Shown: positions 6,250 to 63,600 of the stretch, piece after piece
Position numbering within the stretch: the stretch's first letter is position 1
How the letters are laid out: every line of letters starts with the position of its first letter
From: an uncultured Eubacteriales bacterium
GTDB taxonomy: Bacteria > Acidobacteriota > Aminicenantia > Aminicenantales > Aminicenantaceae
Direction of reading: 5' to 3'
DNA: 64,000 nucleotides
Assembly (NCBI GenBank): GCA_964645765.1
Contig: CAZYBE010000006.1
Coordinates: 18,175 to 82,174 of the forward strand
Made by a program: the position numbers and the translations under genes
Notes under the pieces: model-generated
Databases searched by the model: none
What the model saw: the letters and a program-made list of their open reading frames with translations, nothing else
Told to the model about the DNA's origin: nothing

Positions 6250-7416
6250 TTAGTAAATGCACCTTCGGGCTTCATCGGCATAGGCTCTGATTAACTCGAG
6301 ATCGGCGTCAAAGAAATGGTCTGAGGGAGCTAAAATATATCCGCCTCCCTCCCCTGCTTCCTCAAAGCATCTTCTGACTTCTTTTCTTGTCTCTTCTGGC
6401 TTGCAGCCTTTGAAATAATGAAACTGGTCAAAGCCGCCGATCATGCACACCCTATGCCCGATTCTTTTCTTGGCTTCCTTCAGGTTGGCATCTCCACCCA
6501 TGGCCGATGGGGTAAAAGTTTCCATCGCATCCGGATTCATGTCCGCGATTCTCTCTAAAAAAGGCATCATCCCGCCGCAGGTGTGATAGACGACCCTCTG
6601 CCCGGCTTTGTGAGCGAGTGTAATCAATTCTGAGTCATAGGGAGCGACAAATTCATCGAATATTTTAGGAGAGATGACTGTCGAGGAGGCATCGCCGCCG
6701 CCGTGTTCGATGAGGTCAAATTTGGCGCCTTCTGTTGAGGAAACAAAAACTTTTTTCCTTTCCATCAAAATCTTCAAGAATTTATGCACCCAAATAGGGT
6801 CATAAAAAGTCTCCATGATCAGCTTCTCGATTCCGTATAAAACTGCTGCATCCTGCCAGCAGCCAGGCTGGCCGTAGACATCAAAGCCGGGAATGGAGCC
6901 GCGGACCAATCCCCTTTCGCCGAATTCCTCAACCTGGCGATTGACCTCATCAACATCACAGAGAGGAACCGGAGCGAACTCGGCAAAGGTGTCTATATCT
7001 GATTTTTCTTTAATCATTCGCTCTGTGACCCAGGTCGTGTGCTCATCGCTCTGCAAGACTATGGACAGTGTCTTTCTGGGAGTTTCAAAAAAGTAGCGGA
7101 TTGTCTTGTATCTTGGGTTGGATATATTCTCTGTTCTAGTCCGCCACTTATCAGACCAGATGCGCGGGGCCTGCAAAAACTCCAGTTCTTTTTGTTCCGG
7201 GTCAAAATAATGGCCCTGCGAAGTATCGGGCTTATGGGCAACGACCCAGTTAATCTGGTCTAAGCCGAAATAATCAAAAAACTCCTGGCAGGAAATCCCA
7301 TTCATGTAGGTTTTGAGGAAAGAGGGCATGACATGATGGGTGGTCACAGGAAGACGGTCAGGAATTTCTCTTTTCAGAGCTATCAAAAAGCGTTTTTTTG
7401 AGCTTAACTGTTGCAT
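6250..7416 (-). CDS. Uroporphyrinogen decarboxylase (URO-D) family protein, MtaA/CmuA-like corrinoid methyltransferase (MT2) type
   Basis: 388 aa. C-terminal GGGYILAPSDHFFDADLEL plus N-terminal PDRLPV are typical of URO-D/MtaA family. Confidence 0.65.
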   Translation of the reverse strand: MQQLSSKKRFLIALKREIPDRLPVTTHHVMPSFLKTYMNGISCQEFFDYFGLDQINWVVAHKPDTSQGHYFDPEQKELEFLQAPRIWSDKWRTRTENISNPRYKTIRYFFETPRKTLSIVLQSDEHTTWVTERMIKEKSDIDTFAEFAPVPLCDVDEVNRQVEEFGERGLVRGSIPGFDVYGQPGCWQDAAVLYGIEKLIMETFYDPIWVHKFLKILMERKKVFVSSTEGAKFDLIEHGGGDASSTVISPKIFDEFVAPYDSELITLAHKAGQRVVYHTCGGMMPFLERIADMNPDAMETFTPSAMGGDANLKEAKKRIGHRVCMIGGFDQFHYFKGCKPEETRKEVRRCFEEAGEGGGYILAPSDHFFDADLELIRAYADEARRCIY

Positions 7417-7490
7417 TCTCTTAAAGGAATTTGCTGCTTTTGACTCGCTGGGGCAAAAGCAGCAGTTTTCGAAGCATTCAACCTTAGCCT

Positions 7491-24339: not shown

Positions 24340-24530
24340 TCCAAAACCGTGATGCATAGCCTATAAAGGAGGTGAGGGTTGAGGGTGAGGAGGCCCCTAT
24401 AAGGCCTGAGCGGGCATGGTTTCTCTCCCAAGGAGAGAAGAGCGAAGGCCGAATGGGAGCTGATTTTCCTCGCTGGGGAAAATCAGCGTGCGACGAATCC
24501 TCAATCCTCACCTCCCTCACGGAAATTGAG
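24340..24530. repeat. Highly structured intergenic element A. It has a long imperfect terminal inverted repeat (aggaggtgagggttgagggtgagg ... cctcaatcctcacctccctcac) and internal hairpins, and contains the ctgagcgggcatggtttctct box shared with other loci.
   Basis: Inverted repeats read directly. Shared 21-mer also at 59118-59138 and, reverse-complemented with one mismatch, around 33590. Confidence 0.45.
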
Positions 24531-24607
24531 ATACTCAGTCCTTGATTTTTCCTGCATTATCATCAACTGCTGTCTCCATGTTATGTGGCTCAGAAAATGA
24601 CCAATCT

Positions 24608-24773
24608 GGAATGGCTTAAGCGACCATTGAAGGTTTAGCCTTCCCTTGCCGTGCTTCGAGGGGACCCAGCTCTGCTGGGCGGCGAGGATGTCTGAGCGAA
24701 GCGAGTTCCGCAGCCGCCGAGAAGCGCGGCAAGGGAACGGCGTTAAAAACCTGAATGGGAGCGAAGCCATTCC
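24608..24773 (+). ncRNA. Candidate structured non-coding RNA / structured repeat, copy 1 (strand uncertain)
   Basis: 166 nt between asnS and rimO. 10-bp terminal stem ggaatggctt/aagccattcc, internal hairpin cccagc-tct-gctggg, and a 48-nt core identical to copy 2 at 47864..48032. Stems covary between the copies. Confidence 0.45.
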
Positions 24774-24822
24774 GGATTGGCTTCCTTTAGCTGTTTACTA
24801 ATGAGCCGTAACAATTTACAAT

Positions 24823-26603: not shown

Positions 26604-26608
26604 TTAAA

Positions 26609-33285: not shown

Positions 33286-33439
33286 CTCTAACCTCCTCAA
33301 ACCTATAGGACCTTCAAGATGAATAGCAGAAAAATTAGCACAAATGCCGTCGGTTTTCAATTAATTTCTTATTCCATAAACATATTTTTTGATAATAATG
33401 AATTATCTAGGCTTTTTTGAAAAATACCTGGACAATAAA

Positions 33440-33700
33440 GTTTCTTATTTATCCCGGGCGAAGGCTAAGTGGTTCGAAAACCGTTTGAATGGCTCCGGCT
33501 AAGTAGCTCGAAAACACGCAGGCTTTGCCCCAGCGAGGCAAAGCCTGCTCGGTTTCAGGCTTCGCTCTCCTCGACCGGAGGTCGAGGAACCATGCCCGCT
33601 CAGCCTTCAAACGGTTTTCGAGCTACTTAGCCTCTGCCAGATGGATCAAAAGCCTGCGTGTTTTCGAACCACTTAGCCTGAGCCCCAATTTGAATTTACA
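33440..33700. repeat. Composite palindromic intergenic repeat element. A 19-bp unit (ggctaagtRgYtcgaaaac) occurs twice direct and twice inverted, with internal hairpins and the ggctgagcgggcatggtt box.
   Basis: Read directly: ggctaagtggttcgaaaac (33463) and ggctaagtagctcgaaaac (33497), with reverse complements at about 33613 and 33661. Hairpin cctcgacc-gga-ggtcgagg. Confidence 0.5.
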
Positions 33701-33740
33701 TTCATTTTTGTGTTATTTTTAAAACCGGCCCGAATAAGCA

Positions 33741-39264: not shown

Positions 39265-39351
39265 AAGGTCCTATCCAGAATGGCCTTGCTCCCATTCAGG
39301 TTTTTAACGCCGTTCTTTTTTTTGTGGATTTAAAATTTTTCCTGAAAGGAG

Positions 39352-45119: not shown

Positions 45120-45180
45120 AATTTTTCTAAGCTAGGCGAAGGCAGAGTGGCGAGAAGGCCGTTTGAAGGCTGAGCTATTT
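45120..45180. repeat. Short copy of the intergenic repeat family (ggcgaaggc ... ccgtttgaaggctgagc)
   Basis: Shares ccgtttgaaggctgagc with the reverse complement of the 33.5-kb element. Confidence 0.35.
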
Positions 45181-47863: not shown

Positions 47864-48032
47864 GGGAAATAGCCGCAGCGACCATTGAAGATTTAGCCTT
47901 CGACATTCGCTCTTCGAGGGAACCCGACGAAGTCGGGCGGCGAGGATGTCTGAGCGAAGCGAGTTCCGCAGCCGCCGAGAAGAGCGAATGGAGAATGGCG
48001 TTAAAAATCTGATTGGAGCGAGGCTATTTCCC
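47864..48032 (+). ncRNA. Candidate structured non-coding RNA / structured repeat, copy 2
   Basis: 11-bp terminal stem gggaaatagcc/ggctatttccc, hairpin cccgac-gaa-gtcggg, and the same 48-nt core as copy 1. Confidence 0.45.
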
Positions 48033-49628: not shown

Positions 49629-50198
49629 TTATTTTTTCAGCGCTTTAACGCCCCAGAGAGTCAGGGGAGGCGAGAAATATGACTCCATTCCCACAGTTCC
49701 TTCGGGAGTCAGCCGAATGCTTGCTTGTTCGTAGATTCTTCCCTTTCCCTCTCCCTTGTCGTTGATATCGAGCTCAATGACCATGAAGGGAAATCTGGCA
49801 TCTACCCTCTGCTGGGCCTCTACATCCCAGCTTTGCCTTGGGGTAAAGAGCAAAATTTTCCTTCCTTTGTCCGTCGGGATGCTGTGCGCGGCGTGAATGA
49901 CGATTTTCACACCGCGGCCGCCAATAGGTCTGAAAATCCCCTTATTCATCGCATTGAAGACGCTCATGAATGATTCATAACCTTCTTTGGAGAAGACTTC
50001 CTTTAAACGCGAGATTTCCTCGGCACTGGTGTAGCTGTCGATCGAAATCTCGAATTTCGTCGCCACTCCTGCTTTCGGTCCAGATTGCATGAGGAGCCTG
50101 GCTTCAAATTTCTCCTCGCACCAGATGACGGTGCTCAAACCCAGGCAGGCGGCCAGGACTATAAACACCAGGCGAATTTTCATCCTGCGTCTTTTCAT
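49629..50198 (-). CDS. Secreted hypothetical protein consisting only of the about 170-aa N-domain shared with the downstream outer-membrane protein
   Basis: Signal peptide. About 70% identity to the N-domain of 50292..51668; high nucleotide identity indicates recent duplication. Confidence 0.45.
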   Translation of the reverse strand: MKRRRMKIRLVFIVLAACLGLSTVIWCEEKFEARLLMQSGPKAGVATKFEISIDSYTSAEEISRLKEVFSKEGYESFMSVFNAMNKGIFRPIGGRGVKIVIHAAHSIPTDKGRKILLFTPRQSWDVEAQQRVDARFPFMVIELDINDKGEGKGRIYEQASIRLTPEGTVGMESYFSPPLTLWGVKALKK

Positions 50199-50291: not shown

Positions 50292-51668
50292 TCAGAATTT
50301 GAACCTCAAACCGGCCCAGATGCTAAGATTCCGCAAATCGAGCACGGCTTTGCGAGCACCGGCTGGTTCGTTTTCCAGAATAGCCAGCCTCGGCTGAGGC
50401 TCGCTTTCGAGGTAATAGAGCGCTCCTTCCCTTTTATAACCCACCACCACAGGATATCTCTGGAACGACTCCGAACCTTCGAACCCGTCGAGGCGGGCAT
50501 AGCGGCCCTGGGCCTCGATGAACAACGACACCTTAGGGTTCAGAGCTAATTCAAACACACCTCCGCCGTGAACGCCAAACCCCTGTCCTTTGGCGCTCTG
50601 ACCGAAGTCCTCTCTTTCATCCCCCATAAGGAGATTCAGGCTGAGCTTATAGTCTGCCTGATAGAGCCCGACCCCTCCATGGAGATAAAATGAAACCAGC
50701 CTGCCCAGCAGCAGCCAGTATGAAATCCCAAGTCTAACATGAATCGTCTGTAAATTGGGTGCGCTATTAAGATTGAAAAGCATACCAGGATTTTCATAGA
50801 AAACCAGAAGGTTCTCGGCATTCGCCCTCCCGGCACCGACCCCGAGGCTGACGCCGATTCGAGGCGTGACCTTATAGATGAGGTCGGCCGCAATCTCTAA
50901 TCCAGAGCTGAGAGACTGGGTCCGCTTATCGTCGATAGTGAGACCCTGAGCGGCAATGTCCTCGGCCCTCGCTTCGAATTCGCCTTGGCTTCCCCGCTTG
51001 AAATCTCCGCAGTCAAAGAAGCTCCCTCCGCCCGAGAGCTTCAAGCTGAGCCCGATGCCGCGGAATTTGCCTGTATCCTTTTCTCCAACATCCGGTTTCG
51101 GCTCGGCCAGCGCTCTAACCCCCCAGAGAGCCAGGGGAGGCGCGTTATACAAATCCATTCCTACAGTTCCTTCACCGGTCAAGGTGATGCTCACTTGTTC
51201 ATAGATTTTTCCCTTTCCCTTCCCTTTATGGCCAATGTCGAGCTCAATGAGCATGAAGGGAAATCTCCAATCTATTATCCGGGGAGCAGCCGCATCCCAG
51301 CTTTGACTTGGAGTAAAGAGCAGTATTTTCCTTCCTTTATCCGTCGGGATGCTGTGCGCGGCATGGATGACGATATTCACACCGAGGCCGCCGATAGGCT
51401 TAAAAATCCCCTTATTCATCCCACGGAAGGCGCTCATGAATGATTCATAGCCTCCTTGGGAGAAAACCTCCTTAAGCTGCGAGATTTCCTCGGCACTGGT
51501 GTAGCTCTCGATCGAAATCTCGAACTTCGTCGCCAGGCCTCCACTCGTTTCGAGTTCGGTGAGGAGTCTGGCTTCGAATTTTTCCTTGGCCAAAAGGAGA
51601 TTGCTCAAACCCAGGCAGGCGGCTACGGCCATGAAGCTCAAGCAACTTTTCATCATCCATCTTCTCAT
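50292..51668 (-). CDS. Outer-membrane beta-barrel protein with an N-terminal domain of unknown function (paralog of 49629..50198)
   Basis: Signal peptide, N-domain, Gly-rich linker, alternating-hydrophobic beta strands and terminal aromatic (GLRFKF). Confidence 0.5.
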   Translation of the reverse strand: MRRWMMKSCLSFMAVAACLGLSNLLLAKEKFEARLLTELETSGGLATKFEISIESYTSAEEISQLKEVFSQGGYESFMSAFRGMNKGIFKPIGGLGVNIVIHAAHSIPTDKGRKILLFTPSQSWDAAAPRIIDWRFPFMLIELDIGHKGKGKGKIYEQVSITLTGEGTVGMDLYNAPPLALWGVRALAEPKPDVGEKDTGKFRGIGLSLKLSGGGSFFDCGDFKRGSQGEFEARAEDIAAQGLTIDDKRTQSLSSGLEIAADLIYKVTPRIGVSLGVGAGRANAENLLVFYENPGMLFNLNSAPNLQTIHVRLGISYWLLLGRLVSFYLHGGVGLYQADYKLSLNLLMGDEREDFGQSAKGQGFGVHGGGVFELALNPKVSLFIEAQGRYARLDGFEGSESFQRYPVVVGYKREGALYYLESEPQPRLAILENEPAGARKAVLDLRNLSIWAGLRFKF

Positions 51669-59076: not shown

Positions 59077-59140
59077 TCAAACGCTAATACGAGCGGTGAG
59101 TGGTGAAGGCCGGTATGAGGGCTGAGCGGGCATGGTTTCT
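59077..59140. repeat. Copy of the intergenic repeat family (gaaggccgg ... ctgagcgggcatggtttctct)
   Basis: 21-mer identical to 24407-24427. Confidence 0.4.
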
Positions 59141-59146
59141 CTGCGC

Positions 59147-59185
59147 AAAAAAAAACCCGCCTCCCCACTCGGGGGAGGCGGGTTT
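59147..59185 (-). terminator. Rho-independent terminator for the TonB-dependent receptor gene (perfect 11-bp GC stem; T9 tract on the minus strand)
   Basis: aaaaaaaaacccgcctcccc-actc-ggggaggcggg. On the minus strand the stem is followed by TTTTTTTTT. Confidence 0.65.
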
Positions 59186-59210
59186 GAGCTTCGACTTATC
59201 TGCGAGGAAC

Positions 59211-63529: not shown

Positions 63530-63600
63530 TTGACAATAGCGAAGGCTTAGTGCTTAGAAAACCGTTTTCAAAGCACTAAGCCTGAGCTTTGGTGTAGACC
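63530..63600. repeat. Copy of the intergenic palindromic repeat family (gcgaaggcttagtgcttagaaaaccgttttcaaagcactaagcc)
   Basis: Palindrome cttagtgctt...aagcactaag around gaaaaccgttttc. Overlaps the stop codon of the radical SAM gene. Confidence 0.4.

Follow-up and report, generated by a model that had tools for sequence, protein, structure and literature searches.

The palindromic block described here lies between metK and an M16 peptidase operon in a 64-kb stretch of DNA (contig CAZYBE010000006.1 of assembly GCA_964645765.1, positions 18,175 to 82,174; hereafter the window). metK is encoded on the minus strand and the operon, M16 peptidase / M16 / FTCD, on the plus strand. The surrounding spacer is A+T-rich (G+C 0.22-0.39), whereas the G+C content of the block is 0.56-0.61. 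The 19-mer GGCTAAGTRGYTCGAAAAC has four exact matches, two on the plus strand (33463-33481 and 33497-33515) and two on the minus strand (33614-33632 and 33660-33678); 0.05 matches are expected by chance from window shuffles, and none of 100 shuffles attains the observed count. Weaker matches are found at 63544 and 63564. A preliminary description had seen these four copies and read them as an evenly arranged operator array for a dimeric regulator, or as a REP/BIME-like element. The copies are confirmed, but their start-to-start distances of 34, 117 and 46 nt are not even.

Two long inverted repeats, 33457-33489 with 33606-33638 and 33491-33526 with 33649-33684, interleave to form the block. 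Short partner boxes swapped between the arms, also reported earlier, are confirmed as repeats: CGTTTGAA (33482-33489) with TTCAAACG (33606-33613), and ACGCAGGCTTT (33516-33526) with AAAGCCTGCGT (33649-33659). Both strands of the 241-nt block fold into a nested rod with a three-way junction at its tip (z = -10.6 and -11.0).

The nested pair in the metK–M16 spacer

The four 19-mers form the closing stems (P1) of two copies, one nested in the other, of an interspersed element of about 146 nt. The consensus unit of this element, in sense, is 5' GCGAAGG - P1 arm - CCGU(J1) - GGCUGAGCGGGCAYGGUU - P2 hairpin - AGAGCGAAGCC - UGNAWCCGAGC - P3 - GCGU - P1 arm' - CCUGAGC 3', and P3 carries the loop UCGCUGG. 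P1 closes a three-way junction in which the core and the two hairpins, P2 and P3, lie. The inner copy, Y, is complete (Table 1). The covariance model of the family (R1, described below) matches Y along all of model positions 1-146 (of 146), with 156.6 bits and E 4.7e-39. The folding strand of Y is the minus strand of the window, and Y forms the first row of the family alignment A1. The outer copy, X, lacks its interior from GGCUGAGC through most of P3. The layout of its 5' end, GCGAAGG-arm-CCGTTTGAA, recurs in dozens of family copies, its 3' end agrees with the family 3' end ...GCGT-arm-CCUGAGC, and its flanking bases at -1/+1 and -2/+2 (G-C, G-C) lengthen the stem. R1 gave no full-span outer match in the window itself; in L233, L238, L061 and L066 (L plus a number labels a compared locus outside the window) it interprets the corresponding outer arms as a P1 helix that contains a large insert.

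Orthologous metK–M16 spacers settle that the composite consists of two nested copies of one family, since the element is simple in one relative and nested in two others. In L235, with an M16 protein 84% identical to that of the window, one simple and intact plus-strand copy stands between the same flanks (168.9 bits), and its arms differ from the outer arms of the window by two compensated changes. In L233 and L238 (M16 95% and 72% identical, respectively) the same outer ends (43-47 bits, plus strand) enclose an inner copy from a different subfamily (about 160 bits, minus strand). The inner arms of the window and L233 are completely different, and the outer arms of L238 have decayed, with 5 mismatches in 19. 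X is accordingly read as an old plus-strand copy, occupying the same place in the spacer of related genomes, whose core has been replaced by Y, a younger and perfectly paired copy on the minus strand. In L001 (Logan contig ERR4334734_698933), which carries an identical M16 gene, the contig stops within the element, 86 nt upstream of the start codon. Repeats typically interrupt assemblies in this way, and the repeat explains the assembly breaks at this locus.

The most plausible reading of the block, to which we assign a probability of roughly 0.8, is a nested pair of non-autonomous mobile structured repeats that belong to a new family of Aminicenantes genomes and are not operators. The metK / M16-FTCD palindrome is on this reading repeat DNA and not a regulatory switch, and the locus itself is ordinary.

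Comparison across the family also revises other details of the preliminary description. One of its two central hairpins, cctcgacc-gga-ggtcgagg (33569-33587), stands; the other, aagcctg...caggctt, is unsupported by comparative data and is replaced by the conserved hairpin aggctttgcc-ccagcga-ggcaaagcct (33520-33546), which is P3. The central box ggctgagcgggcatggtt (33588-33605, minus strand) is real and part of the family core. A distance of 40 bp to the M16 gene holds from the end coordinate chosen at that time; from the element end (33685) the start codon (33741) is 56 nt away. Five related copies elsewhere in the window had been missed (the last rows but two of Table 1).

Table 1. Parts of the nested pair, further family copies and promoter-like sites, in window coordinates.
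Feature	Position	Strand	Description
Outer copy X	33455..33686	+	Disrupted; ends only, core replaced by inner copy Y
X 5' end	33457..33489	+	Terminal GGCGAAG, P1 5' arm 33463-33481, J1 box CGTTTGAA 33482-33489
X 3' end	33649..33685	+	Last 7 nt of P3 3' arm and GCGT (33649-33659), P1 3' arm 33660-33678, terminal TGAGCCC
Inner complete copy Y	33492..33637	-	P1, P2, P3 and all conserved core boxes
Y P1 5' arm (third 19-mer)	33614..33632	-	Preceded in sense by GCAGAGG and followed by J1 CGUUUGAA (plus-strand 33606-33613)
Y P1 3' arm (second 19-mer)	33497..33515	-	19/19 positions complementary to 33614-33632
Invariant core box GGCUGAGCGGGCAUGGUU	33588..33605	-	GGCU pairs with AGCC of second box; GA/GA forms tandem sheared G-A
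P2 hairpin CCUCGACC-UCC-GGUCGAGG	33569..33587	-	Helix 8: 5/5 pairs compensated, 98.5% of cells paired
Invariant core box AGAGCGAAGCC	33558..33568	-	From family alignment
P3 hairpin	33519..33547	-	Conserved 7-nt loop UCGCUGG (plus-strand 33530-33536); helix 9: 6/6 pairs compensated
Spacer AGATGGATCA	33639..33648	not assigned	10 nt, between Y 5' end and X remnant
Second full copy	24364..24520	+	R1 106.1 bits; subfamily with different P1 (GGUGAGGGUUGAGGG...); present in L245, absent from L242 spacer
P1-only minimal copy	63539..63587	+	Arms joined GAAAAC-C-GTTTTC, core deleted; 40.2 bits, 98 model positions skipped
5' fragment	45135..45175	+	Ends exactly at internal GGCTGAGC; from window repeat finding
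5' fragment	59096..59142	+	Runs through GGCUGAGCGGGCAUGGUUUCUCU box
Degenerate copy	7390..7488	+	P3 and 3' arm kept; R1 21.8 bits, E 0.001
metK promoter-like site TTCAAA-18-TATTAT	33392..33421	-	Consensus match between element and metK
Candidate M16 promoter TTGAAT-18-TGtTATTTT	33690..33719	+	Read from sequence; few nt after X 3' end

Fold, size and hosts of the family

The fold was derived from A1, a plain MAFFT alignment of 41 non-redundant copies; of the 39 pairs that RNAalifold places on it, 26 show compensatory changes. R1 was built from A1, and its 101 matches in 100 metagenome loci make up the alignment A2, with 98 distinct rows; in about 70 unrelated genome loci (~550 kb) R1 found no matches. 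A2 was fitted to R1, which favours the model pairs, and the plain alignment A1 shows the same covariation. Over the 98 rows, standard pairs fill 94.1% of the cells, compared with 39-50% when the 3' partner is slid by 1-3 columns, and both partners have changed in 35 of the 39 pairs. The slid controls reach covariation scores of 0.06-0.09 and the unslid pairing 0.456, a value attained in none of 500 shuffles. The column pairs with the highest mutual information are mostly the pairs of the model.

Arm positions vary across the 98 copies with compensation in the partner arm (helix 2, 11 of 11 pairs), and the core, GGCUGAGCGGGCAYGGUU, AGAGCGAAGCC and the loop UCGCUGG, is nearly invariant. The columns of the box GGCUGAGCGGGCAUGGUU, which occurs three times in the window where 0.09 are expected, are invariant in A1, and those of the P3 loop nearly so. 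The GGCU/AGCC helix covaries (A-U 63 vs G-C 21; G-C 82 vs C-G 11). A motif pair GCGAAGSC / GSCUGAGC (two G-C pairs, tandem G-A/A-G, helix) is found once at the termini and again at the base of the P2 domain, and the partner follows a change, AGCC to AGGC going with GGCU to GCCU. A d(GCGAAGC) mini-hairpin was considered for this motif and rejected, because GCGAAGG goes with the partner GCCUGAGC (11 cases) and the long-range pairing is thereby conserved. An extra pseudoknot was likewise not adopted; mutual information only hints weakly at a contact of J1 with the P2-P3 linker. P3 together with GUGUUUUCGA is flagged as terminator-like in Y, and the U run is missing from high-GC copies.

G-U and U-G cells outnumber A-C and C-A cells by 212 to 42, and by 141 to 42 after subtraction of one conserved U-G pair. 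Since G-U outnumbers A-C, the structure is kept on one strand only.

The size of the family was estimated with a core pattern independent of the arms, GAGCGGGCAYGG N15-32 AGCGAAGSC, which is present at no fewer than 120 loci of the metagenome collection. The unit is uniform in length, 61 of the 63 copies delimited by end motifs falling in the 140-149 nt bin, and the G+C content of the copies ranges from 0.42 to 0.78. A scan with the degenerate 19-mer, covering one genome per species and with about 550 chance matches expected by estimate, returned mostly single chance matches in genes of unrelated organisms (about 84 among the matches listed). In MAGs (metagenome-assembled genomes) of the Aminicenantes type, it returned at least 27 loci in six MAGs, all within the same larger element: at least 14 contigs of CSMAG_935 and at least 2 of RS_12_32, both Candidatus Aminicenantes, and, in MAGs labelled uncultured Eubacteriales, at least 4 contigs of CAZGMN, 3 of CAZJXZ, 3 of CAZJYC and 1 of CAZSPM. 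The genome-wide search for the 19-mer had been proposed in the preliminary description; the many random intergenic sites that it finds are the outcome named there as speaking against its own proposal.

Loci in MAGs labelled 'uncultured Eubacteriales' that contain the element are L014, L040, L056, L061, L062, L079, L080, L087, L089, L107, L108 and L238. These labels are probably wrong, because CAZJYC shares the metK-M16-FTCD synteny of Aminicenantes with the window, its M16 protein being 72% identical. The window itself is Aminicenantes DNA, homologues of its M16 and RimO proteins being so named. The protein beside one high-GC copy is 100% identical to an Aminicenantes MAG protein, and those beside L118 and L231 belong to clusters named Aminicenantes or Acidobacteriota. 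The neighbour of L122 exactly matches a protein of an Omnitrophica WOR_2 MAG, and those of L232 and L153 share 90% clusters with proteins from MAGs whose labels are Bdellovibrionota and Actinobacteria. The family is thus mainly one of Aminicenantes with possible members in other phyla, given that MAG labels are not fully reliable.

Carriage by plasmids or phages was considered and rejected: the plasmid collection gave no element matches, and the single pattern match in IMG/VR was not confirmed by R1. No Rfam 15 family reaches its gathering score in the window, and Rfam scans at E<=10 of the element and five other element-bearing loci returned noise only, the best sub-threshold match being Dictyoglomi-1 with 16 bits against a gathering score of 150; the models IS605-orfB and HEARO do not match the element. 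Literature searched by core sequence strings and on Aminicenantes repeats or non-coding RNA yielded nothing relevant.

Insertion, self-nesting and competing explanations

Insertion can be followed in the spacer between the class-II tRNA synthetase gene and rimO. In the window this spacer holds the full copy at 24364-24520 and then a second repeat family; in L245 (RimO 93% identical) it holds the first element only; and in L242 (RimO 89% identical) it is 74 nt long and both repeats are absent. When the empty L242 site is aligned with the filled sites of L245 and the window, the insertion point falls between ...GCCTA and CTGTTTAC..., and no bases are duplicated there. Relative to the model, the inserted unit is slightly longer by extra paired bases (5' UAAAGGAG... 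and ...CUUUUG 3'). At 58 distinct sites the -1/+1 bases, as read from the flanks, are mostly complementary and not direct repeats; the 3' flank has the consensus CTTTC, and the 5' flank a weak (C)TAG/TAA tendency in bases that pair with the 3' flank. Copies stand most often between divergent genes. The elements of the family are gene-less and non-coding, occur in high copy number, and enter intergenic sequence without target-site duplication.

The composites follow a strict rule. In all eight, the inner copy is antisense to the outer copy, the 5' part of the outer copy stops immediately behind J1, with 0-3 nt between it and the inner copy's 3' end, and the 3' part of the outer copy is cut at variable points within P3 and followed by a variable spacer. 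Nested pairs with unrelated arms occur in further lineages (L207, L166, L135, L066). New copies land repeatedly, and always antisense, at one point of an existing copy, immediately after its J1 box and at the near-palindromic GGCTSAGC motif. At this fixed junction the normal J1-GGCTGAGC is replaced by J1-GGCTSAGGC, the complement of the terminal GCCTGAGCC of the inner copy. The near-palindrome GCTNAGC is common to both forms, and we infer that this motif is where strands join or switch.

The inner copy of the window and its 10-nt spacer match the composite of L061, at an unrelated locus of another genome, down to the junction AGATGGACC. This recurrence implies that composites are copied as units or spread by gene conversion via their shared outer arms. 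A spacer of similar length stands in the corresponding position of L233 and L238, where homology is uncertain.

The family may spread via a folded single-stranded intermediate of the sense strand, a proposal made because only that strand has G-U-tolerant and compensated pairing. Recognition by a trans-acting enzyme encoded elsewhere would keep the unpaired nucleotides of the core constant, and GCTNAGC-type motifs would serve as joining sites. The intermediate could be either single-stranded DNA, handled by an HUH or tyrosine-type enzyme, or RNA, by reverse transcription of a transcript with a hairpin and U tail. The absence of duplication, and composites that seemingly propagate as units whatever the orientation of the interior, are consistent with DNA; the conserved U-G pair, the tandem G-A motifs and the U-rich 3' tail travelling with the element are consistent with RNA. 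We lean slightly towards single-stranded DNA. One may also speculate, as a considerably more tentative idea, that the core (GGCUGAGCGGGCAYGGUU / AGAGCGAAGCC / UCGCUGG) is a ribozyme-like or enzyme-docking module of an unrecognised class of mobile structured nucleic acid. In one version this would be a bacterial SINE-like (short interspersed element) retroelement, copied from the hairpin-plus-U-tail transcript, with site- and orientation-specific integration at motifs of the GCTNAGC type, also those within its own relatives. Such a class may extend beyond one phylum, as copies stand beside genes of MAGs labelled Omnitrophica, Bdellovibrionota and Actinobacteria.

Several observations weigh against a mobile repeat. 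Neither a mobilising enzyme nor an autonomous partner was identified. All-against-all clustering of 1,246 open reading frames (ORFs) from 135 loci gave no recurrent protein family beside the copies, and in ~1.6 Mb of loci no larger element was seen that combines these ends with an ORF. Insertion is inferred from genomes whose flanking proteins are 89-95% identical, and no recent transposition was caught within a population. Mechanisms linked to replication or transcription have no support from orientation. An intact copy is retained in the metK–M16 spacer of four of the four genomes examined, possibly by selection. The core is conserved across hosts with elements of 42-78% G+C, possibly also in MAGs of other labelled phyla (Omnitrophica WOR_2, others); this exceeds what is usual for selfish miniature inverted-repeat transposable elements (MITEs), and the core could have a host function. 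Finally, pure selfish spread does not explain an enrichment of promoter-like sequences downstream of the copies: of 51 copies, 9 have a sigma-70-like promoter (>=9/12 matches) that starts 6-17 nt past the sense 3' end, against none of 51 for each of three control flanks (0/153 combined).

Candidate biases that were tried and dropped concern strand and gene content. A replication-strand bias is not seen, the GC skew of the sense strand being positive at 53 loci and negative at 53, and a transcription-orientation bias is weak only (upstream gene co-oriented 31, opposite 50; downstream gene co-oriented 46, opposite 33). A gene carried by or beside the element was also rejected, as no family recurs and long copies carry a non-coding domain and not an ORF.

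A host-functional module, either a small RNA gene in multiple copies or an insulator or terminator domesticated upstream of promoters, is the main rival as to why the core is so conserved, and as an account of the family we consider it unlikely. It would fit the deep conservation of the unpaired core with its U-G pair, the (C)UUU(U/C) tail that directly follows the P1 hairpin in many copies, the downstream promoter-like sites and the copy kept in four genomes. Yet no conserved promoter lies within 60 nt upstream of the copies (0/51), many copies are truncated, P1-only, nested or decayed, presence and absence differ among close relatives, orientation in tandem gene contexts is unbiased (11 sense vs 15 antisense), and the inner copy has been swapped for another subfamily member between genomes 95% identical in M16. 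As to a terminator, a co-oriented gene stands upstream in only 31 of 81 copies, and the flag in Y falls on P3 + GUGUUUUC.

At the metK–M16 locus itself, the single promoter-like site on the metK side is at chance level (mean 0.8 in region shuffles). The candidate M16 promoter has 8/12 matches, which is below the scan threshold, and its flank is conserved in L233, L235 and L238. If these candidates are promoters, the element would lie outside both the metK and M16 transcripts. Most likely it has no dedicated regulatory role here and is at most a spacer or insulator.

That the family consists of true REP/BIME (REPIN) elements, short palindromes mobilised on single-stranded DNA by RAYT, an IS200/IS605-like Y1 transposase, appears improbable. 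The broad category put forward in the preliminary description is apt: the elements of enterobacteria and Pseudomonas are likewise high-copy extragenic palindromic repeats, lineage-specific, in clusters of alternating orientation, inserted without target-site duplication and presumed to act as folded single strands, and folding of the Aminicenantes element is strand-specific too. A REP unit is a self-folding imperfect palindrome of 20-40 nt with a GTAG-type tetranucleotide at its 5' foot. The Aminicenantes unit is instead a three-way junction of about 146 nt with a conserved unpaired core, single arms that have no self-complementarity and pairing that spans arms 98-178 nt apart. GTAG/GTGG does occur within the arms, but in this subfamily only, and its columns vary across A1 and A2. 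A conserved interior with variable arms is also the reverse of REPINs, and no RAYT gene was seen and no Y1-transposase-like family recurs among the neighbours of copies at 135 loci, although a RAYT would normally be encoded once, away from the copies.

A classical MITE, derived from an insertion sequence with a DDE transposase and with the 19-25-bp arms as its terminal inverted repeats, is very unlikely. Complementary termini of ~25 bp, a length of ~150 bp, high copy number and intergenic position are all as expected for it. However, the filled and empty sites differ without target-site duplication, the bases just outside the arms covary as a stem extension and are not direct repeats, arms differ between subfamilies in one genome with a constant interior, the G-U bias indicates single-strand folding that a double-stranded cut-and-paste substrate would not need, and in the ~1.6 Mb of loci no larger element that has these ends together with an ORF was seen. 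The ERIC/IRU, Correia (CREE), RUP and BOX repeats resemble the Aminicenantes element as imperfect intergenic palindromes of ~100-160 bp that occur across species, can fold as RNA and have size variants from internal indels at fixed points. They generally have TA or other target duplications and DDE-type ends, whereas the present element is free of duplication, has stronger covariation, strand asymmetry and orientation-specific self-nesting, and belongs to a different host lineage.

An operator array in which the 19-mers bind a dimeric factor co-regulating divergent metK and M16-FTCD promoters is hardly credible: the element does lie between divergent genes, with the motif there four times and a copy retained in four related spacers, but the 19-mer is not palindromic, the same arms recur at many unrelated intergenic sites in Aminicenantes MAGs, neighbouring genes have no functional theme, the orthologous spacers show two arms only (L235), decayed outer arms (L238) or entirely different inner arms (L233), and arms that are free to change across the family while they stay complementary are the opposite of a protein-recognised operator.

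Two further systems share features with the mobile structured repeat proposed here. PATEs derived from IS200/IS605 elements, and solo omega-RNA or right-end remnants, are likewise non-autonomous, lack target duplication, have strand-specific structure and depend on an enzyme in trans. In PATEs each end carries its own subterminal hairpins, and insertion occurs 3' of a set tetra- or pentanucleotide, whereas the ends of the Aminicenantes element pair together over ~25 bp and a fixed 5' target was not found. Integron attC sites are imperfect palindromes of similar size in which structure matters more than arm sequence, and they recombine as strand-specifically folded single strands. They stand in same-orientation cassette arrays beside ORFs and carry R/L boxes (GTTRRRY), in contrast to the single, dispersed copies in both orientations with a conserved 90-nt interior described here.

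The family is notable for strong comparative support of its three-way-junction fold, a core that is near-invariant across hosts of differing G+C, strand asymmetry, duplication-free insertion, a fixed self-nesting rule and the absence of an Rfam entry. In a phylum without a cultured model, the element offers a handle for finding the mobilising enzyme, which could be a new single-stranded DNA transposase, recombinase or reverse transcriptase. Its copies need masking or modelling when Aminicenantes MAGs are annotated and assembled.

Decayed copies and other repeats

At least seven copies or fragments of the family are present in the window. Window-wide repeat finding linked the block to 63539-63587, 45135-45175, 24391-24426 and 59107-59142. 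The six non-nested copies are all on the plus strand, which is taken as chance. The junction GAAAAC-C-GTTTTC of the P1-only copy is common to L079 (3894-3932) and L040 (5599-5647), whose arms differ, and suggests recurrent slippage across the junction base; slippage between the GUUU of J1 and that of the 3' arm can explain the origin of such P1-only forms. The two arms of the L219 copy come from different subfamilies. Fragments of the 5' as well as the 3' part are found and their end points vary, and truncation asymmetry was for this reason dropped as an uninformative test of reverse transcription. Long variants (L131, L133, L223, L224 and the truncated L079) carry in the P3 loop an extra conserved, G+C-rich and structured domain of ~150 nt (…UGAUUUGUGGCUUGCCACAAAUC…GGUCGCAGGGCGUAAGCCCGAGAAGGGGAGGCAGGGAGC…), which has no ORF and no Rfam match. 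In L195, L178 and L209 the P3 half is replaced by short hairpin repeats AAATGGGGnCAGGCCCCATTT, another small repeat type.

Two further candidates suggested by the arms were set aside. A small antisense ORF (GGAGAGGAACC-ATG/GTG, then MPAQP...) was judged non-coding by inspection, as its downstream part is the covarying P1 arm and J1 length and stops vary. The likeness of the arm (..GTGGAACGAAAAC..) to a Tn3-family inverted repeat is a coincidence, as the arm is not conserved in the family and no 5-bp duplication is present.

A second repeat family of ~175 nt, F2, is found in the window at 24600-24790, 47868-48030 and 39270-39315, with long complementary ends TTTTGGGAAATAGCC...GGCTATTTCCCAAAA and an internal CTGAGCGAAGCGAG. 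It often stands directly after the 3' end of the main element, at 24600 of the window, in CSMAG_935 and at several metagenome loci (...GAGC CTTTCTTCAATGGTCGC...). A third palindromic repeat of ~190 nt, with ends GTCATTGCGA...TCGCAATGAC and containing GAGGAGCGAAGCGACG, lies between pgpA and cinA in L244 (1885-2070) and L245 (2070-2260), relatives 93% identical in RimO; the corresponding spacer of the window is 5 nt long (26604-26608) and represents its empty site. The octamer GAGCGAAG occurs 13 times in the window where 3.7 are expected, and is found in different repeat families at 24440, 24694, 24759, 33560 and 47952, which suggests a signature common to several Aminicenantes repeats.

A 300-nt direct repeat (49638-49937 and 51108-51407; 80% identical, 1470 nt apart), inside or beside the minus-strand ORFs 49629-50198 and 50292-51668, probably reflects paralogous genes. 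Directly after the fragment at 59096-59142, a G+C-rich hairpin AAAAAAAAACCCGCCTCCCCACTCGGGGGAGGCGGGTTT (59145-59190) with A and T runs on either side lies between two minus-strand genes and looks like a bidirectional terminator.

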